Shown here: in pieces, positions 20,841 through 35,782 of the stretch
Position numbering within the stretch: position 1 is the first letter of the stretch
How the letters are laid out: every line of letters begins with the position of its first letter
Source: an uncultured bacterium
Lineage (GTDB): Bacteria; Omnitrophota; Omnitrophia; Omnitrophales; Aquincolibacteriaceae
Assembly: GCA_964606385.1 (NCBI GenBank)
Contig: CAZSFZ010000002.1
Location: forward strand, 35,119-99,118
Length of the DNA: 64,000 nucleotides
Direction: 5' to 3'
Notes under the pieces: generated by a model
Seen by the model: the letters and a program-made list of their open reading frames with translations, nothing else
Databases searched by the model: none
Told to the model about the DNA's origin: nothing
Position numbers and translations under genes: made by a program

Positions 20841-21113
20841 TTATTTTTTCTTAGTCTCGCAGGATGAACAGTCCCCGGAGCAACCGGAAGAAGAGGGCTT
20901 GTCCTTTTGGGCGGCTTCCTTGTAGCCTTTGGAGCGATAGTCCGTCTGGTAGAAACCGCTTCCCTTAAAGAGTACCCCGGCCCCGCCCGAGATCATGCGC
21001 TCCGCCTTGGATTTCCCGCACTTGGGGCACTTCTTGATGGCTTTTTCCGTCATGGACTGATATTTCTCGAATCGGTGGCCGCAGGCCCCGCATTCGTATT
21101 CATAGGTCGGCAT
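20841..21113 (-). CDS. FmdB-family zinc-ribbon protein
   Basis: MPTYEYECGACGHRFE...CPKCG gives a CxxC-X17-CxxC arrangement. The tail is Cys-rich (CSGDCSSC). Length is 90 aa. Confidence 0.75.
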   Translation of the reverse strand: MPTYEYECGACGHRFEKYQSMTEKAIKKCPKCGKSKAERMISGGAGVLFKGSGFYQTDYRSKGYKEAAQKDKPSSSGCSGDCSSCETKKK

Positions 21114-21136
21114 GGATCATTTTCCTTTCAAAAAGC

Positions 21137-22651
21137 TTACGCTTCAAAAAGACTGACGGTGGAAAAATCAGTATCGCTTGTAACATTGATCCCGAGACGC
21201 TTGAGCCCCTTGTCGTCTCCGGAGGTCGGAATGTGCGTCATATGCGCCTCACATCCGTTCAGCTCCTTTAACTTCGACATGGCCGCCTCCGCGGAAGGGT
21301 TGGTCGCGGCGCTGATACTCAGAGCCACCAGGATCTCGTCCAAATTGAGGCTCACGGCGTGGGCCCCCATGATGTCCTGCTTCATACGGCCGATGGATTC
21401 GATCACGCCGAGCGACAAGAGATGGATCTGGTCGGGGATCCCGGCGAGTTTCTTCACGGCATTCAGCACAAGGCTGGATGCGGCATGCATGAGCGGCGTG
21501 TTCTTCCCCGTCACGATCGACCCGTCATGAAGCTCGAGCGCGGCGCCGCAATAGATCCCCTTATTCCCTTCTCCGAGACGCTGGAGCTCCTGCGCGACTT
21601 CGCGCGCGGGAAGCACGACGCGCCGGTCCTCAATCTTCGCGTCGAGCTCGCGCATCAAAAGCTCGGTCCGCTGCGCGGCCTCTTTCTCCACGAATCCCAT
21701 CACGTACTCGCAGGAATAACGGAAAAAACGCGAGATCACTTCCTGCGTCGCGGCCTTGCGGACCGCCTCATCGTCCACGATGCCGAAACCGGCGCAGTTG
21801 ACCCCCATATCCGTGGGCGATTTATAGATCGAACGTTTCCCCATGATCTTTTTCAGGATGCGCTGAAGCACCGGGAAGATCTCGAGATCGCGGTTGTAAT
21901 TGACCGTGGTCTTTTTGTAAGCCTCCAGATGGAACGAATCGATCATGTTGATATCGCCCAGGTCCGCCGTCGCCGCCTCATAAGCCACGTTCACGGGATG
22001 CTTGAGCGGCAAGTTCCAGATCGGAAAGGTCTCGAATTTCGAGTACCCGCTTTCGAGACCGCGTGTGTGATCATGATAAAGCTGTGAGAGGCAGGTCGCG
22101 AGCTTTCCGCTCCCCGGCCCGGGCCCCGTCACGATCACGATCGGATTTTTGGTTTGGATGTACTCGTTCGCCCCGTAACCTTCGGGACTCACGATGAGCT
22201 CCACATCCGTGGGATACCCTTTTGTGAAACGGTGGGTACAAACGCGGATCCCGCGGCGCTCCAGCTTGTTCTTGAAGATCTTGGCGGCCGGCTGTTCGTT
22301 AAAACGGGTGATCACGACGGCTGTGACCGATAACCCCCAGGTCTTGAGGTCATCGATCATTTTGAAGGCATCCGCATCATACGTGATGCCGAAATCCGCG
22401 CGCAGTTTCCGCCGCTCGATATCCCCGGCATGAATACAAAGGATGATATCGATCTGGTCTTTCAGCTTTTGCAGCAACCGCATCTTGACGTTCGGATCGT
22501 ATCCCGGAAGGACGCGCGCCGCGTGATGATCGAAAAGAAGTTTCCCACCGAATTCGATATAAAGTTTGTTGCTGTATTTTTTGACCCGTTTCAGGATCGC
22601 TTCCGATTGTTCCTTAAGGTATTTATCGTTATCAAAACCGGCCTTCTTCAT
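21137..22651 (-). CDS. DUF1846/UPF0371-family protein with a P-loop (Walker A) motif
   Basis: IVIVTGPGPGSGKLAT is a Walker A motif. The start was trimmed to the ATG at 22651, preceded by an AGGGGAGGGG SD. Length is 504 aa. Confidence 0.7.
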   Translation of the reverse strand: MKKAGFDNDKYLKEQSEAILKRVKKYSNKLYIEFGGKLLFDHHAARVLPGYDPNVKMRLLQKLKDQIDIILCIHAGDIERRKLRADFGITYDADAFKMIDDLKTWGLSVTAVVITRFNEQPAAKIFKNKLERRGIRVCTHRFTKGYPTDVELIVSPEGYGANEYIQTKNPIVIVTGPGPGSGKLATCLSQLYHDHTRGLESGYSKFETFPIWNLPLKHPVNVAYEAATADLGDINMIDSFHLEAYKKTTVNYNRDLEIFPVLQRILKKIMGKRSIYKSPTDMGVNCAGFGIVDDEAVRKAATQEVISRFFRYSCEYVMGFVEKEAAQRTELLMRELDAKIEDRRVVLPAREVAQELQRLGEGNKGIYCGAALELHDGSIVTGKNTPLMHAASSLVLNAVKKLAGIPDQIHLLSLGVIESIGRMKQDIMGAHAVSLNLDEILVALSISAATNPSAEAAMSKLKELNGCEAHMTHIPTSGDDKGLKRLGINVTSDTDFSTVSLFEA

Positions 22652-22723
22652 GCAAACCCCTCCCCTGGTCATGGCGACGTTGCCGTGTGATTTGCTGCGG
22701 GATCGATATTTAGGACGGACTGG

Positions 22724-22787: not shown

Positions 22788-23579
22788 TCAGGCGGCGTGG
22801 CCGGGTTCGTAAGCGGCAAGTTCGGCGACCACCTCGCCCAGCACGGGCACCTTGACCTTCATGAGAAGCGGGATGCGGCGCTCATCCAGGCTCATCCATC
22901 CCCTGACCTTGCCGCGCCGGACAAAAAACCCCTCGAAAAGCACTATCGGTTCGACCTCAACAGCCTGAAAAATACCCACATCATCGATCTTCATCTCCCG
23001 GACACCTTTCGTGGCCACCTCGAGATCCCAGTTCTTTTCATCCGCGTTCACCGGGATCATGACTTTGGAATCCGGTTTCAAGTCCTGCAGGCGGAGCCAG
23101 TAACAGCAGGAGATCTGGTCCTGAACGTCTTTCGGGATGAACATTTCCTTGCGGCTGTTGTCCTTGCGGGAATAGAAACGGCCGACATGCCCCTCCTGGT
23201 CATACTCCATGGATTCGTCGGTCCAGTAACGCCCTTCCTTGATCTTTTTTTCATACCGGAGGGAATGAAAACGCTCAACATCGATGTAGCTGTGATGCGT
23301 GTCCCGGACCTTGTAGATCCAGTCCAGGATCGCGCGGGAACGAACGTTGATCTCAATGTGATAGGCATCGCGATCGTTCACCTTGACGATCTCTTTGACC
23401 GTCGCCTCCGCTTCCCCGACGGGGAGCCCTGCGTAACGGACCTCAAATTTGATCTTTTCCCCGAGAAATATTTTTCCCGCGGAACTTTCGGAGGCCGGAA
23501 AAACCGTTTCCGCGTTTTCCGCAAAACCCGCGGGGATGAGCAACCCGCACAGGAAGAGGACCAGCACCGCTTTTTTCAT
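22788..23579 (-). CDS. DUF3108-family secreted protein
   Basis: The signal peptide is MKKAVLVLFLCGLLIPAGFA and a beta-rich body follows. The start was trimmed to 23579, 3 nt after the upstream stop. The long N-terminal ORF extension is discounted as non-coding. Confidence 0.65.
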   Translation of the reverse strand: MKKAVLVLFLCGLLIPAGFAENAETVFPASESSAGKIFLGEKIKFEVRYAGLPVGEAEATVKEIVKVNDRDAYHIEINVRSRAILDWIYKVRDTHHSYIDVERFHSLRYEKKIKEGRYWTDESMEYDQEGHVGRFYSRKDNSRKEMFIPKDVQDQISCCYWLRLQDLKPDSKVMIPVNADEKNWDLEVATKGVREMKIDDVGIFQAVEVEPIVLFEGFFVRRGKVRGWMSLDERRIPLLMKVKVPVLGEVVAELAAYEPGHAA

Positions 23580-23584
23580 AGACC

Positions 23585-24334
23585 TCAATTCCGGATCGTT
23601 CCGTCCAGGCCGATCACGATCCTTTTGACGGGAAGCTTGGTGCCGGAGAGTTCGACCGCTTCCTGGGCCATGCGGAAAAGGCCCGAACAGCAAGGCACTT
23701 CCATGATCACCACGGTCAGGGAATACACGGTATTGTTTTTCAGAAGTTCGGCGATCTTTTCGACATAACCGCCTGTGTCGTCGAGCTTGGGACAGGCGAT
23801 GACCAGCCTTTTCCCCTTGAGCATGTCCTGATGAAAACTTCCGAGCGCGAAAGCTGTGCAATCCGCCGCGATCAGAAGATCGCACTCCTTGAAATAAGGC
23901 GCGACCGGCGAGATCAAATGCAGCTGGATCGGCCACTGACTGAGCTCGGAGGGGGCGCCTCCCGCGGCCGAAGCTTCCGGTCTGGCGGAAGCCTCTCTTT
24001 TAAATTCGCGCGCCATCGAACCCGGGCAACCGCCAAACGACGGTAAAGCCGGCGCTCCGTGAACTTTTTTTGCGGCTTCGGGGCCCTGGGTCTTCATCAC
24101 ATGTTGAAAAGCGGCCTTGGCATCGTATTCCGCGCTCTCACGCTCCACGATCTTGAGGGCGTCCACGGGACAAACATCCAGGCAGGCCCCCATCCCGTCG
24201 CAGAAGATCTCTTTAACGAGCACGGCCTTTTTATGTTCATCCAGCACCAGCGCGCCTTCCGCGCATGCCTGGGTGCAGAGCCCGCATCCGTTGCATTTTT
24301 CCCTGTCGATCTCAATGATCTTTCGTTTTGCCAT
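23585..24334 (-). CDS. 4Fe-4S dicluster ferredoxin-domain protein with a C-terminal Cys-containing domain (function unknown)
   Basis: Two cluster motifs, CNGCGLCTQAC and CDGMGACLDVCP, are present. C-terminal cysteines include ACPKLDD and VPCC. An AAGGGG SD precedes the ATG at 24334. The gene overlaps the end of the upstream GT9 gene. Confidence 0.65.
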   Translation of the reverse strand: MAKRKIIEIDREKCNGCGLCTQACAEGALVLDEHKKAVLVKEIFCDGMGACLDVCPVDALKIVERESAEYDAKAAFQHVMKTQGPEAAKKVHGAPALPSFGGCPGSMAREFKREASARPEASAAGGAPSELSQWPIQLHLISPVAPYFKECDLLIAADCTAFALGSFHQDMLKGKRLVIACPKLDDTGGYVEKIAELLKNNTVYSLTVVIMEVPCCSGLFRMAQEAVELSGTKLPVKRIVIGLDGTIRN

Positions 24335-25409
24335 GGAGGACCCCTTGGATTTTTGAAAAAACCTCGCCCGGACCCAATTCTTTAAGACAGGCGATCGTCG
24401 GACACTGTTTATTATAACGGAATTTGTAATAACAGGGGCGGCAATCAAGGCCCTCCTTAAAAACAGCCCGGGCATCTTCCACGGGCGGGTAAGGCCCGTA
24501 AACTTCCGGAGGAACGGGTCCGTAGAACGCCACGAGCGGGACGCGAAGCGCGCGCGCCAAATGCACAAGGCCCCCGTCATTCCCGATAAAAAGCGCCGAC
24601 TTTTCAAGGACCTTCGCCGTTTGTGCCAGCTTCAGTTCCCCCGCCAGTACGATCGAGGGCGGCTTGATCATCGCCTGCAATTCCTCACAAAGCGCCCGTT
24701 CGGACCGACTTCCCAGGATCGCGACGCCGCGAAGGCCCCGCTCCGCCTGGATCTTCGCGATCAATGCCGCGAAGTTTTTCACGGGCCAGCGCTTGAAAGC
24801 GGCTTCCTTTCCCCAGGAATCCCCGCCTCCCGGAGCGACGGCGAGGAACCGTTCGGGAAGCAGTTTGAGCTTGTTCGCGACTTCCACCCCGATCAACGCG
24901 ACGGGTTTCGGAAAATAATATTCCAGAAAACGGTCCTCGACGGGGATGCCGGCCCTTTCCGCGAGGTCACAATAAAAATCCGCCGCGTGTTTTTTCCAGA
25001 AAGCCTCCGGGAGCGGGTAGCGGATGTTATGAAAAACCGCCCGGTTCTTGTACGCGAACCCCGCGCATTTCGGGACCCCAAGCAAGAACCGGCCCAGGAA
25101 GGCGTGCTCACGCCGAAGCGAGTAGTCCAGGATCAGATCGTAGTGTTTTGCACGCAGCTTTCGCCCCAGCTCCCACAGGTCCCGAAGATTTTGGAACGCA
25201 TTCTGGCGATGGGCACGGTCCTTGTCCACGACGAAAATCTCATTGATATGGGGATTGTTTTCCACGGCCTCGCGCGTCCGGGAACCCAAGAGCAGGTCCA
25301 CGGTCTCGACCGTCGGGATCAATCGCAGGGCCCGCATGACCGGCGTCACGAAAAGAAGGTCCCCGATCCCGTAAGGATGAACGATGAGCACCCGCCGAAG
25401 CGTTCTCAT
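24312..25409 (-). CDS. Glycosyltransferase family 9 (LPS heptosyltransferase-like), paralog 1
   Basis: The N-terminus has the GT9 motif RVLIVHPYGIGDLLFVTPVMRALR and the C-terminus reads GNDGGLVHLARALRVP. Length is 365 aa. Confidence 0.8.
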   Translation of the reverse strand: MRTLRRVLIVHPYGIGDLLFVTPVMRALRLIPTVETVDLLLGSRTREAVENNPHINEIFVVDKDRAHRQNAFQNLRDLWELGRKLRAKHYDLILDYSLRREHAFLGRFLLGVPKCAGFAYKNRAVFHNIRYPLPEAFWKKHAADFYCDLAERAGIPVEDRFLEYYFPKPVALIGVEVANKLKLLPERFLAVAPGGGDSWGKEAAFKRWPVKNFAALIAKIQAERGLRGVAILGSRSERALCEELQAMIKPPSIVLAGELKLAQTAKVLEKSALFIGNDGGLVHLARALRVPLVAFYGPVPPEVYGPYPPVEDARAVFKEGLDCRPCYYKFRYNKQCPTIACLKELGPGEVFSKIQGVLHGKTKDH

Positions 25410-26465
25410 TTAATGCATCTCCGGGACGGATCCGTGAAGAAGATCGCGCGCCGCGGCATAAACATCCTCCACGGCGATCTCATCGATGTAAGTGAATTTC
25501 CGCTCCGCCGCGGGAATATGAGAAACGTCTTTGGCGATCACCCGCCCGCGGCCTCCCAAAGGCCTCCAGCGTTCGGGTCCGAGCCCGGGTTCGTACCTTC
25601 CAAAAATGGAGACCACCGGCGTTTCGACGGCGGTCGCGATATGGACGGGCCCTGAATCATTCGAGATCAGCAGGGCTGCGCGTTTAAACAAGGCCCCAAG
25701 ATGCCCGAGCGAAAGTTTACCGCTCAGGTCCACCACGGGAATGTTTGTCCCCGCTTTCAGTTTTTGGACGGTCTCCCGGTCTTTGGCCGTTCCGATCGCG
25801 AGAAAAACATACGATCTTTCTTTCGCCATTTTCGTCACAAGCGCCGCGAAACGTTCCGCGGGCCACATTTTGGTCGCGTCACTTGCCGAAGGATTAAGCA
25901 CGATCCAGGGCCGGTCGTTCGGGATTTTATAAAATGCCAAAAGGTTTTCGAGCGAGCGGACCGCCCGGTTTGTCACAGGAAAAAAAAGACTTATTTTTTG
26001 CGGTGGAACGATCCCGAGAGGTTCCAGGAGGTCAAAAAGATATTCGGCCTCTTGTTTTTTCCCTTCTTTTTTGTCGTAGGGGTGGGCATGCGTGAGGGCC
26101 CAGGGAGCGCGGCGGGCATAACCGATGCGTACGGGGATCCCCGCGATCCAGGCGGCAAGGTGCATCCGATTCGTCCCGTGAGCGTGGATGACCAGGTCGA
26201 ATTTTTTATTCCCGAGGCTCTGGCTGAAATCAAGCTGCCCCCAAAAACCCCGCTCCTTCCCTTTTTTATCGTAAAGGATCGCTTCGTTCAGATACGGGTT
26301 CTCTTCGACGATCTCCCGGTGCTCGAGGAATACCAGGGCCGCGATCCATGCCCGCGGAAATTTTTCGCGCAGGGCTTTAAAAAGCGGGGTCGTGAGGACC
26401 AGGTCCCCGATACGGTCCGTCCGTGTGACGAGAATACGCGGAGCGTCAGGCAGCTTGATCGGCAT
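25410..26465 (-). CDS. Glycosyltransferase family 9 (heptosyltransferase-like), paralog 2
   Basis: RILVTRTDRIGDLVLTTPLFKALR and SNDSGPVHIATAV are present. Length is 351 aa. Confidence 0.8.
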   Translation of the reverse strand: MPIKLPDAPRILVTRTDRIGDLVLTTPLFKALREKFPRAWIAALVFLEHREIVEENPYLNEAILYDKKGKERGFWGQLDFSQSLGNKKFDLVIHAHGTNRMHLAAWIAGIPVRIGYARRAPWALTHAHPYDKKEGKKQEAEYLFDLLEPLGIVPPQKISLFFPVTNRAVRSLENLLAFYKIPNDRPWIVLNPSASDATKMWPAERFAALVTKMAKERSYVFLAIGTAKDRETVQKLKAGTNIPVVDLSGKLSLGHLGALFKRAALLISNDSGPVHIATAVETPVVSIFGRYEPGLGPERWRPLGGRGRVIAKDVSHIPAAERKFTYIDEIAVEDVYAAARDLLHGSVPEMH

Positions 26466-27408
26466 TCAGAAGCTCCAGCGAGAGCCGGACCACTTTTTCG
26501 GGTTTCAGACCGTGAAAACAGCTGCGCTCGGCGTAGGGCAATTTATCGGAACCGCAGGAACAGGCTGCGGCTTCTTCGCGCGCGATGCGGAATTTCGGTC
26601 CTTCATGCCCGTATTTTTCGTGGTTCGTCGGGCCGAAGATCCCGACGGTCGGCGTCCCCATCTCGGATCCAAGATGCATGATCGCGCTGTCGTTGGCGAT
26701 CACGAGCGCCGCGTTCGCGATCAGGGCCGCCGTTTCAGGGAGGATCAGTTCACCGCAAAGAACGCTCACAACTCCGGGAAGTTCGGACTCGATGCTGTCC
26801 GCGACCGGTTTTTCATTCAGCGTCCCGACCAAAAGGACTTTTTTTCCCGTTTTTTCATGAAGCGCCTTAATGACCTCTTTAAAGTATTTGACGGGCCAGC
26901 GCTTCCGTTCACTCGCGGCTCCCGCCGCCACCAGGATCCACCCGTTCTTTTCCGTCACCCCGAAGACTTCCAGCGTCCGCATGGCGAACACTTCATCCGC
27001 TTTATTGAAGAAAAGAAAAGTGGGCGGGACGGAAATGCCGGGCTCAACGGCCTCGAGCATTTCAAGATGGCGTTCCCGCATGTTGACCCGCGTGAATTTC
27101 CTGAAAAGAGGCGTTCGCTTCTTGCAGGAAACCAGGAACGGGATCGCGGTATTGCGAAGATCCACGACGAGGTCATACCGGGCTTTCCGAAGTTCCCCGA
27201 TAAATTTCAGTTTTTTCCAAAAAGAGGCTTTTTTGTCGTAGATCACGATCTTGTGGATGTCCGGACTCCGTTGCAGGACGCTTTGGGCGCGGGGACCGAC
27301 CACCACCGTAAGACGCGCTTCGGGATACTTCTTCGAAAGCGCCATGATCACGGGAGTCGTCAGGATCACATCCCCAAAATTACTTAAGGTCACCACAAGA
27401 ATGTTCAT
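26446..27408 (-). CDS. Glycosyltransferase family 9 (heptosyltransferase-like), paralog 3
   Basis: MNILVVTLSNFGDVILTTPVIMAL and ANDSAIMHLGSEMGTP are present. Length is 320 aa. Confidence 0.8.
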   Translation of the reverse strand: MNILVVTLSNFGDVILTTPVIMALSKKYPEARLTVVVGPRAQSVLQRSPDIHKIVIYDKKASFWKKLKFIGELRKARYDLVVDLRNTAIPFLVSCKKRTPLFRKFTRVNMRERHLEMLEAVEPGISVPPTFLFFNKADEVFAMRTLEVFGVTEKNGWILVAAGAASERKRWPVKYFKEVIKALHEKTGKKVLLVGTLNEKPVADSIESELPGVVSVLCGELILPETAALIANAALVIANDSAIMHLGSEMGTPTVGIFGPTNHEKYGHEGPKFRIAREEAAACSCGSDKLPYAERSCFHGLKPEKVVRLSLELLNADQAA

Positions 27409-28427
27409 GGCCGCCTCAGGACCCTTTCGATCGCGTCAAAAACTTCTTCGGGAACAATATGGGAAAGCCAGCCTTCTTCCGGAAGATCTTTGCCGAAAAA
27501 AGGCACCGGATATCCCGTCGGGACGTATTGTAACACGAGACTTTCGCCGCTCCCACGGGGTCCGGTGAGTTTGGGGTCCGTGGGGCCGAACAGGGCAACG
27601 ACCGGAGCCCCGACGCCGGAGGCGATATGCATGGGCCCGGAGTCTCCCGTCACAAGGCACGCGGCGTGTTTATAGACAGCCGCCGAAACGCGCAACCCCG
27701 TTTTCCCGACCAGGGAGATCACTTTGGCATTTCGGACCGAAGTGGCCAGCGCCTCCCAAAGCAGTTCGTCCTGGGAGGATCCCGTGACCACGACCGGAAG
27801 TTTCCACCTCATTTCGATCATCTCGGCAAGTGCCGCAAAATGTCCGACCGGCCAGCGCTTGGGCTCCCAATTGGCGCCTAAATGAAAACAAATATACCGA
27901 GAGTGTTTCCCGACACCGTGGGATTCAAGGATGCTCCGCGCGGCTTGCTCATCTTCTTCTTTGTAAAAAAACTGGTATTCTTTTTTGTCGGGAAGCTCAA
28001 ATCCCGCCCCGCGCATCATATTGAAGAAATAATCCAGCTGATGCATCAGTTGAGCGGGCTCCTGGACCGCCCGCGTCATAAACATCTTCCGCCCTTTTCC
28101 GTAGCCGATACGCTCTTTGACGCCCGCCATCGCTAAAAGCGCCGCGCGGGAACGGGAGCGATGGAAAAGATATCCTTGCTCCCAAGGCCCTTGTTTCCTT
28201 AACTCCATTAAAAATCCGGCCCGGGAGAGCCAGGAGCGGTGCGTGCTTTTTTCATCGAAACTTAAAAAACCCGAAACCGCAGGATGCGCTTCAAGGATCT
28301 CCCGGCAGCGCTCCGGGGCCATGCAAACGATCGAAGCCTCGGGATATTTTTTTTTGATGAGATCGAGCGCCGGCATCTGAAAAAGCAGGTCGCCGAGCCA
28401 ATTCTTCATCACCGCAAGGATCTTCAT
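27405..28427 (-). CDS. Glycosyltransferase family 9 (heptosyltransferase-like), paralog 4
   Basis: MKILAVMKNWLGDLLFQMPALDLI and TGDSGPMHIASGVGAP are present. Length is 340 aa. Confidence 0.8.
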   Translation of the reverse strand: MKILAVMKNWLGDLLFQMPALDLIKKKYPEASIVCMAPERCREILEAHPAVSGFLSFDEKSTHRSWLSRAGFLMELRKQGPWEQGYLFHRSRSRAALLAMAGVKERIGYGKGRKMFMTRAVQEPAQLMHQLDYFFNMMRGAGFELPDKKEYQFFYKEEDEQAARSILESHGVGKHSRYICFHLGANWEPKRWPVGHFAALAEMIEMRWKLPVVVTGSSQDELLWEALATSVRNAKVISLVGKTGLRVSAAVYKHAACLVTGDSGPMHIASGVGAPVVALFGPTDPKLTGPRGSGESLVLQYVPTGYPVPFFGKDLPEEGWLSHIVPEEVFDAIERVLRRP

Positions 28428-30520
28428 GACGCGAGAACCCTCTGGCAGTGTTCAAAAACTTCTTCCACGGAAATATGCTTGAGGCAGGCCAGGGTCTCTT
28501 TGGCCTTGCAAACGCCGTTGTAACACGGCTGGCACGGCAGATGATGCGAAAGCACATCGATCTTTTTTCCGGGCGGCACATGGCGCTTGGCGTCCGTCGG
28601 ACCAAAAAGCGCAACGATCGGGACGTTCATGGCGGCCGCCATATGAAGCGGCGCCGTATCCCCGGTCACGACCAGATGGAATTGTTTAAAAAATGCCGGT
28701 AATTCGTTCAGCTCGGTTTTGCCCATAAGGTCCAGGATCTTGCCGGTCCCGAAAGAATAAAAAGGCTGTCCCAGGTCGGCCTCCTCGGAAGAGCCGATCA
28801 GCACGATCCTCGCGTCATATTTTTCCAGAAGCCGTTTGGCCAAAGCGACAAAATGTTCCGACGGCCAGCGTTTGCTCGGCCAGTTCGGACTGGACCCCAT
28901 CACGAACCCGATGATCCGTGTAGATTCCTTCGGTTCAAGCGTCGCGATCATTTGTTTTGCTTTTTCAAGGTCCGCGGCCTTAGGCCAGAGTTCCAGGGCG
29001 TCATCGAATTTAACGACGCCGGCCTTGGACAGAACACGGAATTGATGGCGCAGGGGCGAATCACCGACCTCAAAGGTCCTGTCGGGCCGGTTCAGCAGAA
29101 AACCCCATTGCCCGCGTTCGAAACCGAAACGCTGGACCGCTCCCCCGAGATAAGCGAGGAGATGCGTCCATTTATTATTATGGAGATCGACGGACATATC
29201 GAAACCTTCACGGCGCACGCGGCGGGCGGTTTTCAGAAGATAAAAAAGATTCGAAAGTTTCTTCCGGTCCACCAGGATCATGTCATCCAGATACGGGCAG
29301 GATGAAACGATCGGCGCGAGTTTACGGTCCACCAGAAGCGTGATCGCCGCGTCCGGATAACGCTCCTTAAGCATCCGGAGGCTCGGCACGACCAGGATCA
29401 GGTCCCCCATCGCCCCCAGCTTGATCACCAGGATCCGCCGGCGTTTGCGGACTTCCTGATAAACGTCGAGCGTTTTCTTGACCATTTGCTCGAGGTTGAA
29501 CTGCTCCTCCACTTTTTTCCTCAATTTCACCGCAAACGATTTGGCCTTTTCCCGGTCCGTCAGAAGCTCGTACATGGCCTCCGCCATGGCGGGAATATTG
29601 CGCGGGGGGAACAAAAGCCCCGTCTCATGGTGCTCAATAATGTCCCGAACGCCACCCAGCCATGTCGCTACCACAGGCGTTCCCACCGCTCCCGCTTCAA
29701 TGACAACACGGCCGAAGGGCTCGGGGATCAGCGAGGAAAGAACCAACAGGTCGGATGCCGCCAAAAGGCCGGGAACGTCGCGGGTCGGGGGCAGGATCTT
29801 GACACAAGATTCAAGTCCAAATTGATGGACCGTTTTTTTCATCAGGTCTGTGTAACGGTGCCGACCGCGTCCTTCGGACCCTACGATCCAGACTTCAAAA
29901 TGGGAAAGCCGGCTTCGGAGCAGGTGCACGGCCTTAAGGAATTCCACCTGTCCTTTGCCGGCGGAAAATCTTCCCATCTGAAGGATCCGCATGGGACCTT
30001 TATGTTTTTCGAATTTTGCGAAGGAAAAGGTGAATTGAGAAAGGTCGACGCCCCGAGGGATCAGCCGGATGCGATCCGGCGGCACGTTGAATTCGTCGAT
30101 CATTCGCCGCCCGATCGCGTGTGAAGCCACGATCACGCGTTTGCCCCATCCCATGACATAACTCATGGGATGCACGGAATAGTGGCCGTGGCAGGTTGTG
30201 ATGAACGGAACGCCGGTCTTGCGTGCCGCAAGCCACCCGAGCCACGCCGGGACGCGGCTTCGCGCGTGAATGATATCCACACGCTCGCGCTGAATGATCT
30301 TCACGAGTTCTTCGACCAGAAAAAGTCCGGCCAATGATTTCTGATGAACGGGAAGCCCGTAATGAGGGATACCGATCTTTTGGAGCTCGGCCACGAGCGA
30401 CCCGCCGGATGAGACGACTACCGTCGCGTGGCCTTCCTTTTTCATGGCGCGCGCGAGGTCCACGACCCCGCGTTCGGTCCCGCCGAGTTCGAGTCCCGGC
30501 AAAAGCTGCATTACCTTCAT
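28424..30520 (-). CDS. Fused GT4 (group-1 glycosyltransferase) + GT9 heptosyltransferase-like protein
   Basis: The N-terminal ~370 aa form a GT4 fold (EPFGRVVIEAGAVGTPVVAT). The C-terminal ~330 aa are GT9 (ILVIKLGAMGDLILVVPSL...TGDTAPLHMAAAMNVP). Length is 698 aa. Confidence 0.8.
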   Translation of the reverse strand: MKVMQLLPGLELGGTERGVVDLARAMKKEGHATVVVSSGGSLVAELQKIGIPHYGLPVHQKSLAGLFLVEELVKIIQRERVDIIHARSRVPAWLGWLAARKTGVPFITTCHGHYSVHPMSYVMGWGKRVIVASHAIGRRMIDEFNVPPDRIRLIPRGVDLSQFTFSFAKFEKHKGPMRILQMGRFSAGKGQVEFLKAVHLLRSRLSHFEVWIVGSEGRGRHRYTDLMKKTVHQFGLESCVKILPPTRDVPGLLAASDLLVLSSLIPEPFGRVVIEAGAVGTPVVATWLGGVRDIIEHHETGLLFPPRNIPAMAEAMYELLTDREKAKSFAVKLRKKVEEQFNLEQMVKKTLDVYQEVRKRRRILVIKLGAMGDLILVVPSLRMLKERYPDAAITLLVDRKLAPIVSSCPYLDDMILVDRKKLSNLFYLLKTARRVRREGFDMSVDLHNNKWTHLLAYLGGAVQRFGFERGQWGFLLNRPDRTFEVGDSPLRHQFRVLSKAGVVKFDDALELWPKAADLEKAKQMIATLEPKESTRIIGFVMGSSPNWPSKRWPSEHFVALAKRLLEKYDARIVLIGSSEEADLGQPFYSFGTGKILDLMGKTELNELPAFFKQFHLVVTGDTAPLHMAAAMNVPIVALFGPTDAKRHVPPGKKIDVLSHHLPCQPCYNGVCKAKETLACLKHISVEEVFEHCQRVLAS

Positions 30521-32466
30521 ATCATGGCCCCCAACTTCTCAACCAATGCGCCTTTTTCGCGCTGAAGGACCGCCGTCGCGGGTTTTTTAACGAGTTCCGT
30601 GATATTCTTTTCCAAATCCGCCAAACCGCTCAAGGTCACGAGCCCGCGCTGCGCGAGGATCTGGTGAAAACGGTAATGTTTCGCGGGAAGGTCGCCTTCG
30701 CCGCAGCTTAGCACGATCACATGCTTCCCAGTCCCTACGGCTTCCGAGATCATAGCGAGACTGTCTTCCGTCACGATCAGAAGCTCCGCAAGCCCCATCA
30801 TGCCGCCCGCGGCGTAGGGCGGGTTTTCCTCGTTCGCCGCCACAAAAAATCTGCAGCCCGGATGCTGGACAAGTGTGTTTTTAAGAAAACGTTCCGCGGG
30901 CGCGGAGGTCCGGCGTGAAGTGGTGATCATGTAATCCCCCGCGTGAGTACTGACGCGCTTCAAAACCGAACAGAGTTTTTCCATATCAGAAACGGTCAGG
31001 TCATAACCCCGCGTGGCGCCGCCGATAAAGACCGCTATCTTCGGGCGCGCACTTTCCTCAAGCTTTGCGAGAAGTTCTTTCACATCCGATTCGCGGTCCA
31101 TGATTTTATAACCGCTTGGCATGATCACGCAGCGAAGCGTCCTCTTCGGTACTTTGCCTCCATCATGCGCCGGCACGATCGCAAGATCGTAGTGCGTCAG
31201 GGAGTAGGGAAAAGGCGGCTTCATGATGACGATCTTTTTGGCGCCGGTTTCTTTCGCGAGAAGCATCTGGATGGGCGCAAGGCCGGAACCCGCCGCGATC
31301 AGGTAGTCCGCGCTCACCGGCTCGATCGCCTGAAAAGTTTCCGCCGTCAGAAAGGGCTTGAGCCAGGAAAGTCGCCCCTGGATCCAGGGTTTCATCAAAA
31401 AAGCCAATCCGAAAAGAGCCATCCTGTGGAAAGCTGAACGGTATTCGACATGGATCCGTTCCGTCTCGAATTTAAGGCCGGGACGGCCGTGGAATTCCTT
31501 GAACTCCGAAAGCATCTCGGCCACAACTTCGGACTGCTTAAAATGGCCCGCCTTCCCGTCTGAAAGGATCACGATCTTCCGGTCCCAGGAATATTTCCAG
31601 CGTTTGTTCTCCCAGAGCCATTGATTCGGAAATTTGCGGATAAAACCTTCGAGCAATTCAATATATTGCCGGGCCTGGAACTCGATACGCGCTTGCGGCT
31701 CAAGGGAGGGGTCATCTTTCAGGACCTCCTCGGAATACACCTCATGCTCACGTCCTCCGGTCCTCACAATAAAGAACGGCATGATGAACGCGTCCGTCCG
31801 GTGCGCTAACTGGAAAGCCCCGATCGGGACCGTGGTTCTCCTCCCAAAGAACGGAAGGATGATCCCCTCGGTTTTTCCGGCCGATTGGTCGCCAAGCACC
31901 CCTACCATTTTTTTCTCCCGGAGCGCGCGGATCAGACCGCGGATACCCGCGCCGCGGCTGATCGAGACCGATCCGTGACTCTCGCGAAGTTCATTGATCA
32001 ATCCGTTAAGCTTGGGATATTTCTGATCGCGCGCCAGCACATAGATCGGTGTGCCGCGAAGCCCGGACCAGACCTGCAAAAGTTCCCAATTCCCGAAATG
32101 GGCGGTGAGAAGCACCCCGCCGTGCCCCGAACGCAGAAGCGCTTCATAGCGTTCCAGGTGGTGGATCTTGACATCGAGATCATGGTGCTTGCGTTTCATC
32201 TTCCTGAACGACATGATCTCTACCACATTTTGTCCCATGAACCCGAAGTGATCGCGCACGGCTTTCCATCGCTCGCGTGGCGTCAATTGGCTCCCAAGCG
32301 CCGCCTTCATGTTGATGTAAGCCACGCGGCGCTTCTTTGAAACATAGAAGATTCCGCGGCCCAAAAGATCACCGATCTTCAGTCCCGCGGAAAAGGGGAT
32401 GCGTTCAAAAATAAAAATGAGTATGTGGGCGACGGAACAAGCCGCCCGGTCAAGCAGGTCATTCAT
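30517..32466 (-). CDS. Fused LpxL/HtrB-family lipid A acyltransferase + DUF1022 (ELM1-like) domain protein
   Basis: The N-terminal ~300 aa carry the HFGNWE acyltransferase motif and PNQWLWENKRW. The C-terminal ~340 aa resemble DUF1022/ELM1 (GT-B-like). Length is 649 aa. Confidence 0.7.
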   Translation of the reverse strand: MNDLLDRAACSVAHILIFIFERIPFSAGLKIGDLLGRGIFYVSKKRRVAYINMKAALGSQLTPRERWKAVRDHFGFMGQNVVEIMSFRKMKRKHHDLDVKIHHLERYEALLRSGHGGVLLTAHFGNWELLQVWSGLRGTPIYVLARDQKYPKLNGLINELRESHGSVSISRGAGIRGLIRALREKKMVGVLGDQSAGKTEGIILPFFGRRTTVPIGAFQLAHRTDAFIMPFFIVRTGGREHEVYSEEVLKDDPSLEPQARIEFQARQYIELLEGFIRKFPNQWLWENKRWKYSWDRKIVILSDGKAGHFKQSEVVAEMLSEFKEFHGRPGLKFETERIHVEYRSAFHRMALFGLAFLMKPWIQGRLSWLKPFLTAETFQAIEPVSADYLIAAGSGLAPIQMLLAKETGAKKIVIMKPPFPYSLTHYDLAIVPAHDGGKVPKRTLRCVIMPSGYKIMDRESDVKELLAKLEESARPKIAVFIGGATRGYDLTVSDMEKLCSVLKRVSTHAGDYMITTSRRTSAPAERFLKNTLVQHPGCRFFVAANEENPPYAAGGMMGLAELLIVTEDSLAMISEAVGTGKHVIVLSCGEGDLPAKHYRFHQILAQRGLVTLSGLADLEKNITELVKKPATAVLQREKGALVEKLGAMI

Positions 32467-34903: not shown

Positions 34904-35782
34904 TCACGCCCTCGGATGCGCCGCCGCGTAAGCATCCTTCAAGCGCTGGGTCGTCACGTGCGTGTAGATCTGTGTGGTCGAAAGATTCGCGTGCCCCAAA
35001 AGCTCCTGAACACTCCGAAGGTCCGCCCCGCGATCCAGCATGTGCGTCGCGAACGAATGGCGGAACGTGTGAGGCGAGATCTCTTTCCCGAGCCCCGTCC
35101 GTTTCACATATTTCAGGATCATCCTCCGGACGCTCCGGTCCGTGAGACGGCTCCCGATCCGGCTGATGAACAAAGGTTTCTTGATCGCGTTCGCGGCTTC
35201 GCGCGGAGCCTTCATGTCCAGGTAAGCGCGCAAAACGTTCAGAGCCGTTTGTCCCACGGGCACGATCCGTTCCTTTTTCCCTTTACCTCGCACCCGGACA
35301 AGCCCCTGAAAAAAATCGAGATCATCATGATTGAGCCCCGCGAGTTCGCTCACGCGAAGACCGGAGCTATAGAGCATCTCGAGGATCGCCTTGTCGCGCT
35401 TCTCCTCCCAATTGTTTCTGGAGGGGGCTTCCAGAAGTTTCGTGATTTCATCGGGATTCATGAACGAAGGAAGTTTCTTTTCCTTCTTGGGGGTCGCAAT
35501 CCCCGCCGCGGGGTTCTGCGTCAGGATGTTTTCTCGCACCAGGTATTTGAAGAATGAACGGAGGCAGGCGAGTTTGCGGGAAATGGAGCTTTTGCTGTAA
35601 TCTCGGGTCTTCAAGAACGCCAAAAAAGAGCGGATGTCTAGGTACGTCAGGTCCTTGAAATCCTTTTCGGCGATGAATTTCCCGAATTCCCGGAGGTCGA
35701 TCCCGTAGTTCTTGACCGTGTGCTCGGAAGCGCCCTTTTCGGTCGCGAGAAAACCCAGGAAGTCTTCGACGTTTTTACTCAT
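34904..35782 (-). CDS. Tyrosine recombinase XerC/XerD family
   Basis: The C-terminal catalytic region reads HTFRHSFATHMLDRGADLRSVQELLGHANLSTTQIYTHV. Length is 292 aa. Confidence 0.85.
   Translation of the reverse strand: MSKNVEDFLGFLATEKGASEHTVKNYGIDLREFGKFIAEKDFKDLTYLDIRSFLAFLKTRDYSKSSISRKLACLRSFFKYLVRENILTQNPAAGIATPKKEKKLPSFMNPDEITKLLEAPSRNNWEEKRDKAILEMLYSSGLRVSELAGLNHDDLDFFQGLVRVRGKGKKERIVPVGQTALNVLRAYLDMKAPREAANAIKKPLFISRIGSRLTDRSVRRMILKYVKRTGLGKEISPHTFRHSFATHMLDRGADLRSVQELLGHANLSTTQIYTHVTTQRLKDAYAAAHPRA

Follow-up and report, generated by a model that had tools for sequence, protein, structure and literature searches.

An FrdX-type iron-sulfur protein gene, probably a passenger, within a heptosyltransferase operon of an uncultured Omnitrophota bacterium

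Introduction

Why a gene for an iron-sulfur (Fe-S) protein should lie inside an operon of lipopolysaccharide (LPS) core glycosyltransferases is the question raised by a 64,000-nucleotide stretch of DNA from an uncultured bacterium (Bacteria; Omnitrophota; Omnitrophia; Omnitrophales; Aquincolibacteriaceae), corresponding to positions 35,119 to 99,118 of the forward strand of contig CAZSFZ010000002.1 in GenBank assembly GCA_964606385.1. This whole stretch is referred to here as the window. A first-pass annotation of the sequence had pointed out the gene, on the minus strand at positions 23585 to 24334, and had likened it to ferredoxin-like partners of polysaccharide-modifying enzymes. The analyses presented here revealed that its product very likely belongs to the FrdX family, defined by a Fer4 ferredoxin domain followed by an AF_0155 domain, and that it is probably an electron-transfer protein with three clusters. 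Taken as a whole, the explanation that we favour, with moderate confidence, is that an FrdX-type partner of the hybrid cluster protein (Hcp) was relocated in one lineage, and that its position in the LPS operon is that of a passenger.

The gene frdX encodes a ferredoxin-like protein, and in delta-proteobacteria and clostridia it shares both location and regulation with hcp and hcpR (PMC545781, PMC1274295). The HcpR consensus, wyTTGACnnnnGTCAArw, is found upstream of both hcp and frdX (Rodionov et al., PMC1274295). In D. gigas, frdX was induced by S-nitrosoglutathione (GSNO) in an HcpR1-dependent manner, alongside hcp and a cupin gene (PMC4534486). In C. difficile, frdX (CDR20291_2075) was induced 150- to 220-fold by nitric oxide (NO) and its knockdown was NO-sensitive, the authors stating that its "exact function remains unclear" (PMC12915319). 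Induction by NO/nitrite or an NO-sensitive loss-of-function phenotype is documented in the literature only for D. vulgaris, D. gigas and C. difficile. Many Hcps have no evident partner and the electron donor of class I/III Hcp is open (PMC10210160), while Hcr is a dedicated electron donor encoded beside hcp (PMC1274295).

Results

The gene, its start codon and its junctions

The features that define the gene and its upstream junction are the following:

23585..24334, minus strand: FrdX-type Fe-S protein gene, supported by the open reading frame (ORF), an identical public protein, more than 8000 homologs and the N-terminal alignment
24312..24334, minus strand: overlap of 23 nt in which the upstream GT9 heptosyltransferase gene ends and the FrdX-type gene begins
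24341..24346, minus strand: Shine-Dalgarno-like AAGGGG, 6 nt before the ATG and within the GT9 coding sequence

The minus-strand ORF extends from the ATG at 24334 to the TGA stop at 23585-23587 and encodes 249 amino acids plus the stop. The gene was considered real because public data contain a protein identical to its product (P0001, E = 5e-163) and the search scored more than 8000 homologs. The start was set at ATG 24334, and not at TTG 24607, because the N-terminus MAKRKIIEIDREKC aligns with the N-termini of more than 30 close homologs; the longest possible ORF (340 aa), which opens at that TTG, was ruled out as the gene by the same N-termini. The upstream GT9 gene (24312-25409) finishes with ...CAT TGA at 24312, 23 nt past the FrdX-type ATG, and relatives carry AAAGGAG in place of the Shine-Dalgarno-like hexamer of the window. 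The first-pass annotation was therefore right in describing an Fe-S gene of about 250 codons in a heptosyltransferase operon, whose ATG lies inside the last codons of the upstream GT9 gene. The gap to the downstream DUF3108 gene, which it had given as 3 nt, is in fact a 5-nt spacer (GGTCT) between the FrdX stop and the DUF3108 start (ATG 23579).

Cysteine motifs, domains and predicted structure

The product consists of two domains joined by a linker:

24140..24319, minus strand: N-terminal ferredoxin (Fer4 dicluster-type) domain, residues ~6-65, from Pfam
24017..24031, minus strand: nearly invariant linker motif G-C103-P-G-S, with a possible additional cluster ligand
23588..23950, minus strand: C-terminal AF_0155 domain (PF27217), residues ~129-249, from precomputed Pfam annotation of the identical protein

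The ferredoxin domain was matched by Fer4_10 (6.3e-10), Fer4_7 (2.1e-9) and Fer4_6 (6.9e-8), all above the Pfam cut-offs, and fold comparison showed that the N-terminal part of the model matches ferredoxin domains. The two motifs earlier described as canonical CxxCxxCxxxCP proved to be variants of it. Motif 1 (C14-xx-C17-xx-C20-xxx-C24) is followed by Ala and not by Pro, while motif 2 (C45-DGMGA-C51-LDV-C55-P) has the form Cx5Cx3CP, with Met or Leu at the position of the second Cys, which was missing from all 66 aligned homologs. The protein thus departs from the canonical 2x[4Fe-4S] clostridial ferredoxin, which has two full CxxCxxCxxxCP motifs and eight Cys, and its motif 2 is like that of the 7Fe ([3Fe-4S][4Fe-4S]) ferredoxins. 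The extra Cys-bearing C-terminal domain, in turn, was confirmed by homolog alignments. Five further conserved Cys were observed, namely C103 (GCPGS), C159 (ADC), C181 (CPKLD) and C215-C216 (VPCCxG), and twelve Cys are conserved across 66 homologs with identities down to about 40%. C103 and P104 are at least 90% conserved in these 66 diverse homologs and invariant in 33 closer ones, and C103 may serve as an extra cluster ligand. Across three alignments with the window protein as reference, QWPxQL, ADC, CPKLD and VPCCxG were invariant or nearly so.

The proposal that the C-terminal half might be FrhB/FdhB_C-like or DUF362-like found no support, since neither PF04432 nor PF04015 matched at E <= 10 or in the scan of the full-length protein, and the domain corresponds instead to PF27217. 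This assignment is the precomputed annotation of the identical protein P0001, the Pfam model being newer than the library scanned, and it was also precomputed for all listed homologs, on their C-terminal ~120 residues. In an older Pfam copy, the C-terminal halves of three diverse family members gave no Pfam match at E <= 10. Judging by its name, the AF_0155 family is uncharacterised, and a literature search on that name returned unrelated accession numbers only. The C-terminal domain used alone as query retrieved 1989 clusters at 50% identity, 1200 of them at E <= 1e-10. The AF_0155 domain is always C-terminal, in proteins of 110-395 aa, and Fer4 was its only recurring partner domain in 150 representatives; other AF_0155 fusions were considered as functional hints and set aside as single odd cases that look like gene-call artefacts. 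Neither the linker Cys nor the 120-residue Cys-bearing alpha/beta domain occurs in clostridial and 7Fe ferredoxins, PorD, AprB or the PAPS reductase beta subunit.

Structure prediction with AlphaFold2 (AF2) on an alignment of 33 close homologs gave an unusable model (predicted local distance difference test, pLDDT, 58.7), while the pLDDT rose to 92.3 with a 66-sequence alignment to which 50%-cluster representatives contributed. The latter model predicts a ferredoxin fold followed by two helices and, beyond a flexible linker (residues 94-128), a beta-alpha-beta-alpha-beta-alpha-beta domain, so that the AF_0155 domain would adopt a small alpha/beta (flavodoxin/Toprim-like) fold in which C159, C181 and C215/C216 are placed directly after strands 1, 2 and 3, respectively. 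Because these Cys loops converge at the C-terminal edge of the parallel sheet, C159, C181 and C215/C216 may form a third Fe-S site there. Cys loops after parallel strands together with a CC pair are presumably also found in the N-domain of NuoB and the [NiFe]-hydrogenase small subunit or in MvhD, and the likeness of AF_0155 to such flavodoxin-fold Fe-S modules is an analogy only, drawn through predicted topology. A profile search of Protein Data Bank sequences with the C-terminal domain returned no match, and among solved structures no sequence or fold relative of the AF_0155 domain was found beyond generic alpha/beta folds. Regarding the ferredoxin domain, the motifs suggest that it holds one [4Fe-4S] cluster. 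Its second site would comprise C45, C51 and C24 of motif 1, by analogy with clostridial ferredoxins, and the cluster bound there may be of the [3Fe-4S] type, as in 7Fe ferredoxins, or may be completed by C103 or the invariant D46.

The variant second motif was also weakly matched by the Pfam LdpA Fe-S cluster-binding domain (1e-4, below cut-off), a match shared by 41 of the 150 family representatives, among which the best E-value was 9e-8. It would be in line with a redox- or NO-sensing Fe-S signalling protein, similar to LdpA, in place of an electron carrier. Such a sensor appears very improbable, given that no DNA-binding or signalling output domain is present, that Fer4 alone co-occurs with AF_0155 in the 150 representatives, and that dedicated regulators of the Crp/Fnr and Rrf2 types are encoded beside family members.

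Gene neighbourhoods of the family across phyla

Neighbourhood analysis covered up to 10 kb on each side of the homologs, with one genome per species. A total of 592 stretches were confirmed, the best 80 were kept (46-86% identity), and the counts below refer to 79 species-representative loci from more than 15 phyla, which included Omnitrophota, Aminicenantes/Acidobacteriota, Clostridia, Actinomycetota, Spirochaetota, Planctomycetota, Lentisphaerota, Chlamydiota, WOR-1, Zixibacteria, Sumerlaeota, Fibrobacterota, Caldisericota and delta- and gamma-proteobacteria. Genes within five positions on either side were clustered and the clusters annotated. These counts are lower bounds, because the greedy longest-ORF caller makes spurious ORFs in high-GC loci (for example, clusters "c2", "c5" and "c12"). 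The recurrent neighbours were as follows:

Crp/Fnr regulator (cNMP_binding plus HTH_Crp_2): 23/79 loci, mostly directly upstream (-1) on the same strand
Hybrid cluster protein (Prismane, 1e-158): 15/79 loci, at +1, +2 or -1 on the same strand
Rrf2 regulator: 9/79 loci, mostly at -1
Cupin: 6/79 loci
YgbA_NO ("nitrous oxide-stimulated promoter" family): 4/79 loci
GT9: 3/79 loci, all Omnitrophota

In addition, 31 of 77 loci carry the palindrome TTGAC-N4-GTCAA, mostly in perfect form and with at most one mismatch allowed, at a distance of 63-153 nt ahead of the start. Its density was 1.33 per kb in the upstream regions versus 0.04 per kb in the remainder of these loci (about 30-fold), and it fits the published HcpR consensus. 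An Hcp gene and/or this HcpR box was found in 41/79 loci, and at least one neighbour or site of the nitrosative-stress type in 46/79. One of these settings is illustrated by a 69%-identical homolog (L092), which is the first gene of an FrdX-Hcp pair, with Hcp 15 nt on and the box cTTTGACTTAAGTCAAAg ahead. Homologs of 68-70% identity come after a Crp/Fnr gene in gene-called contigs, and on a Roseburia plasmid the RefSeq annotation gives the order hcp - Crp/Fnr - "4Fe-4S binding protein", the last being 41% identical to the window protein over 97% of the query. In C. botulinum, the homolog and a Crp/Fnr gene are divergently oriented, and a cupin gene is close by. Membership of the window protein in the FrdX family is therefore held with high confidence, because it has the full architecture, all the conserved Cys and a family context linked to Hcp and HcpR. 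The likeness to FrdX of the HcpR regulon comprises a ferredoxin-like Fe-S protein of about 250 aa and homologs of 41-69% identity in hcp, hcpR (Crp-Fnr) and cupin settings behind the published HcpR box; the window gene differs in having no HcpR box, regulator or hcp nearby and in being embedded in an LPS-core operon.

Some features of the box and of the regulator genes were observed besides. The box is perfectly conserved (loci L009-L083; e.g. L092 5930-5946) in Aminicenantes, Clostridia, Parachlamydiales, Spirochaetota, WOR-1 and delta-proteobacteria, and the proteins of these box-bearing phyla are 60-70% identical, which suggests that the regulator-target pair is very strongly constrained or has spread laterally. 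The intergenic region between Crp/Fnr and FrdX of C. botulinum (L094 4925-4945) contains the palindrome GTAAC-N4-GTTAC, and not TTGAC-N4-GTCAA; this may be a clostridial variant of the HcpR motif. A third recurrent context, found in an Actinomycetota subclade (L041, L043, L044, L046, L047, L051 and L054), has no HcpR, Hcp or box, and there the homolog has an MFS-type transporter-like gene and a Flavin_Reduct (PF01613) gene downstream. A Flavin_Reduct gene also stands ahead of Crp in L092.

The LPS-core operon of the window

The genes that surround the FrdX-type gene are listed in the order of transcription:

30517-32466, minus strand: LpxL-ELM1 fusion, a 649-aa ORF with Lip_A_acyltrans (2.7e-42) and Mito_fiss_Elm1 (1.9e-42)
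28424-30520, minus strand: GT4-GT9 fusion of 698 aa with Glyco_transf_4, Glycos_transf_1 and a GT9 heptosyltransferase domain
24312-28427, minus strand: four GT9 genes, between the GT4-GT9 fusion and the FrdX-type gene
24312..25409, minus strand: upstream GT9 heptosyltransferase (Pfam Glyco_transf_9, 4e-29), last of the four consecutive GT9 genes
22788..23579, minus strand: downstream DUF3108 gene (Pfam DUF3108, 1.6e-35), with a signal peptide
20841-22672, minus strand: DUF1846 gene (511 aa) and FmdB-type zinc-ribbon protein gene (90 aa)

The minus-strand cluster thus has the order LpxL-ELM1, GT4-GT9, four GT9 genes, the FrdX-type gene, DUF3108, DUF1846 and the FmdB zinc ribbon, and it continues with a PfkB-type heptose kinase, KdsB, PyrG and KdsA; WaaA-like and LpxK genes head it, as seen in the matching contig L001. 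The upstream GT9 also matched the NCBIfam heptosyltransferase II model at 9e-35, below the curated cut-off. The fusion of Lip_A_acyltrans with Mito_fiss_Elm1 was observed in the relatives L001 and L084 as well. In all related Omnitrophota loci (L004, L005, L084 and L091), the DUF1846 and zinc-ribbon genes separate the LPS-core glycosyltransferases from the genes for the heptose kinase, KdsB, PyrG and KdsA.

No promoter- or terminator-like signal above background was detected between the FrdX-type gene and its neighbours, and the gene lies inside the heptosyltransferase/LPS-core operon and is almost certainly co-transcribed with it. The GT9 gene itself was also examined for an internal promoter or HcpR site, and none was found. 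Upstream of the window gene, an HcpR-type palindrome (TTGAC-N4-GTCAA or TGTGA-N6-TCACA) is absent, and the three one-mismatch matches to the box in the 64-kb window are at chance level, none of them near the FrdX-type gene. The window likewise contains no Hcp, Crp, Rrf2 or cupin gene. None of the operon genes (GT9, GT4, LpxL-ELM1, DUF3108, DUF1846, zinc ribbon, PfkB, KdsB, PyrG and KdsA) encodes a recognisable redox enzyme. The DUF3108 product carries a signal peptide and is therefore exported, while the Fe-S protein has none and is cytoplasmic. Since no gene of the operon suggests a need for redox chemistry and an exported DUF3108 protein cannot meet a cytoplasmic Fe-S protein, the FrdX-type gene is best read as a passenger.

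Gene order and descent in Omnitrophota

At least six distinct Omnitrophota lineages share the order GT9 array - FrdX-type gene - DUF3108, with protein identities of 73-89%. This order was observed in the species representatives L004, L005 and L007, in L084/L085 (75%) and in L091 (74%), loci in which DUF1846, the zinc ribbon, PfkB, KdsB and PyrG are further shared neighbours. The order persisted despite rearrangements: in L084 genes for a GDSL lipase and a response regulator form an insertion after DUF3108, and L091 carries inserted DUF308 and AhpC genes as well as a fusion of two GT9 genes (741 aa). The insertion in L091 (1327-2253) lies midway in the GT9 array and comprises two genes, DUF308 and an AhpC/Redoxin peroxiredoxin, and it indicates that redox or stress genes can reside in this operon with no obvious LPS role. 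The junction between GT9 and FrdX varies, being -23 nt in the window and +12, +18, +29, +69 and +103 nt in relatives, so that the 23-nt overlap belongs to this strain only among the relatives with the same gene order, and the junction between FrdX and DUF3108 is always tight in the clade (-4 to +20 nt).

In the neighbour-joining tree, the GT9-linked Omnitrophota sequences form one clade, nested among sequences linked to the HcpR box, Crp/Fnr and Hcp, with L006 as its sister. No member of this clade has the box, and no Hcp, Crp, Rrf2 or cupin gene was found in L004, L005, L007, L084 or L091. Outside the clade, neither GT9 nor DUF3108 neighbours were found in any of the 76 loci. The co-occurrence with GT9 arrays that the first-pass annotation had proposed to look for therefore exists, confined to one monophyletic Omnitrophota clade and absent from the 76 other loci. 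Because the position in the LPS operon is restricted to one Omnitrophota lineage, it was interpreted as a lineage quirk and not as evidence of a polysaccharide role. A recent horizontal insertion was ruled out by the position kept in the clade and by the GC content of the gene (0.573), which equals that of its neighbours (0.55-0.58).

These data also bear on the possibility that the protein was recruited as a working component of the operon, acting as a redox partner or switch for an LPS-core or outer-membrane step of the GT9, DUF1846 or DUF3108 pathway. The retention of the GT9 - FrdX - DUF3108 order down to about 73% identity, the tight DUF3108 junction, the loss of the HcpR box and the lack of hcp in the window and within 10 kb in relatives are all as expected for such a recruitment. 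In the opposite direction, the operon has no known redox enzyme, the DUF3108 protein is exported away from the cytoplasmic Fe-S protein, synteny extends over the entire region in the clade, so that shared descent may explain the order, the GT9 and DUF3108 neighbours are missing from the other 76 loci, and the conserved residues show no clade-specific change. Recruitment was consequently judged unlikely. A related proposal is that an Hcp-type ferredoxin was captured by the LPS-core/outer-membrane operon, either bringing a redox (or NO/O2) input to envelope assembly or serving DUF1846 or DUF3108. Capture into a working envelope role would explain why the slot between GT9 and DUF3108 lasted after the box was lost, and we regard it as distinctly unlikely.

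Discussion

The passenger explanation can be laid out as a sequence of steps. The ancestral setting of the gene would be the HcpR/NsrR nitrosative-stress module of anaerobes, in which FrdX would take the place of the enterobacterial Hcr and deliver low-potential electrons to a partner that ancestrally was Hcp, for NO/hydroxylamine reduction. In one Omnitrophota lineage, the gene would have been relocated into the LPS-core operon with loss of HcpR control, and it would now be expressed from the promoter of the operon as a passenger, taking no part in heptose transfer. The pathway position proposed for FrdX is the one that Hcr, the NADH:Hcp oxidoreductase of E. coli and other gamma-proteobacteria, occupies. 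Hcr is a FAD/NAD-binding reductase with a [2Fe-2S] cluster, a type of protein unrelated to FrdX. Pfam scans detected no flavin- or NAD-binding domain in the FrdX-type protein, which, unlike Hcr, would therefore need an upstream reductant.

Several points weigh against this explanation. We know of no biochemical proof, in any organism, that FrdX reduces Hcp, and the knockdown effect in C. difficile could be polar on hcp. The FrdX identity was established through architecture, gene context and the regulator motif and not through alignment to a named FrdX (DVU2544 or CDR20291_2075), for which the Roseburia protein and clostridial homologs beside Crp/Fnr are the nearest proxies; a literature search on "DVU2544" returned no paper with that term, and when the Acetoanaerobium homolog was used as query, the matches included many Clostridium species, C. 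difficile not being among them. The number of clusters and their ligands are deduced from conservation and predicted topology, not from coordinates. Moreover, 30 of the 79 loci carry no nitrosative-stress flag at all, and the absence of hcp is established for the 64-kb window of this genome. The GT9/DUF3108 slot with its tight junction has outlasted rearrangements, which is more than a random passenger strictly requires. Finally, two loci have neighbours of another kind: a 71%-identical homolog (L093 3383-6783) ends the row TusA - DrsE_2 - cysteine desulfurase (NifS) - NifU_N - FrdX, and in L006 (3369-4517; 79% identity) the homolog comes after a DsrE-like gene.

The sulfur-trafficking or Fe-S-assembly contexts of L093 and L006 hint at a second functional association of the family. 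They lead to the proposal that the protein helps to assemble or repair Fe-S clusters, for example by carrying clusters or by supplying a NifU/IscU-type scaffold with electrons after NO damage, in which case its link to Hcp would stem from a common stress regulon rather than from direct electron transfer. In favour of this role are the homolog that closes the L093 row, the placement of L006 as sister of the window clade, and the co-regulation of the family with NO-stress genes. An NO-stress regulon of the same kind in E. coli includes the iron-centre repair protein YtfE. The missing Cys of motif 2 together with the CC pair could also mean a labile or transferable cluster. Against it, such contexts were found in only 2 of ~85 loci, Hcp is the commonest direct same-strand catalytic neighbour (15 loci), and the ferredoxin domain is a typical electron-transfer module. 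An assembly or repair role was accordingly considered rather unlikely, and the relocated FrdX passenger remains the explanation that we prefer.

Regarding the polysaccharide link suggested by the first-pass annotation, no recurrent co-occurrence with glycosyltransferases was found across unrelated lineages, so the analogy to ferredoxin partners of polysaccharide-modifying enzymes does not hold. The implication largely fails, because the family has no polysaccharide association and its co-occurrence with GT9 is seen only among close relatives by descent. The Fe-S gene in this heptosyltransferase operon thus gives no clue to redox chemistry in LPS-core synthesis, and it would represent a relocated member of the FrdX family.

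The window protein adds to a known, biochemically uncharacterised family. This family is broadly distributed among anaerobes: it counts more than 8000 close sequences, forms about 2000 clusters when grouped at 50% identity, spans more than 15 phyla and is highly conserved, proteins of different phyla sharing about 65-70% identity. It combines a strong tie to the hybrid cluster protein/HcpR module with a Cys-rich C-terminal domain that has no solved structure. FrdX is an obvious candidate for the electron donor of class I/III Hcp. The Omnitrophota copies, which would be constitutive in an essential operon and uncoupled from HcpR, offer a natural case for roles of FrdX beyond Hcp.

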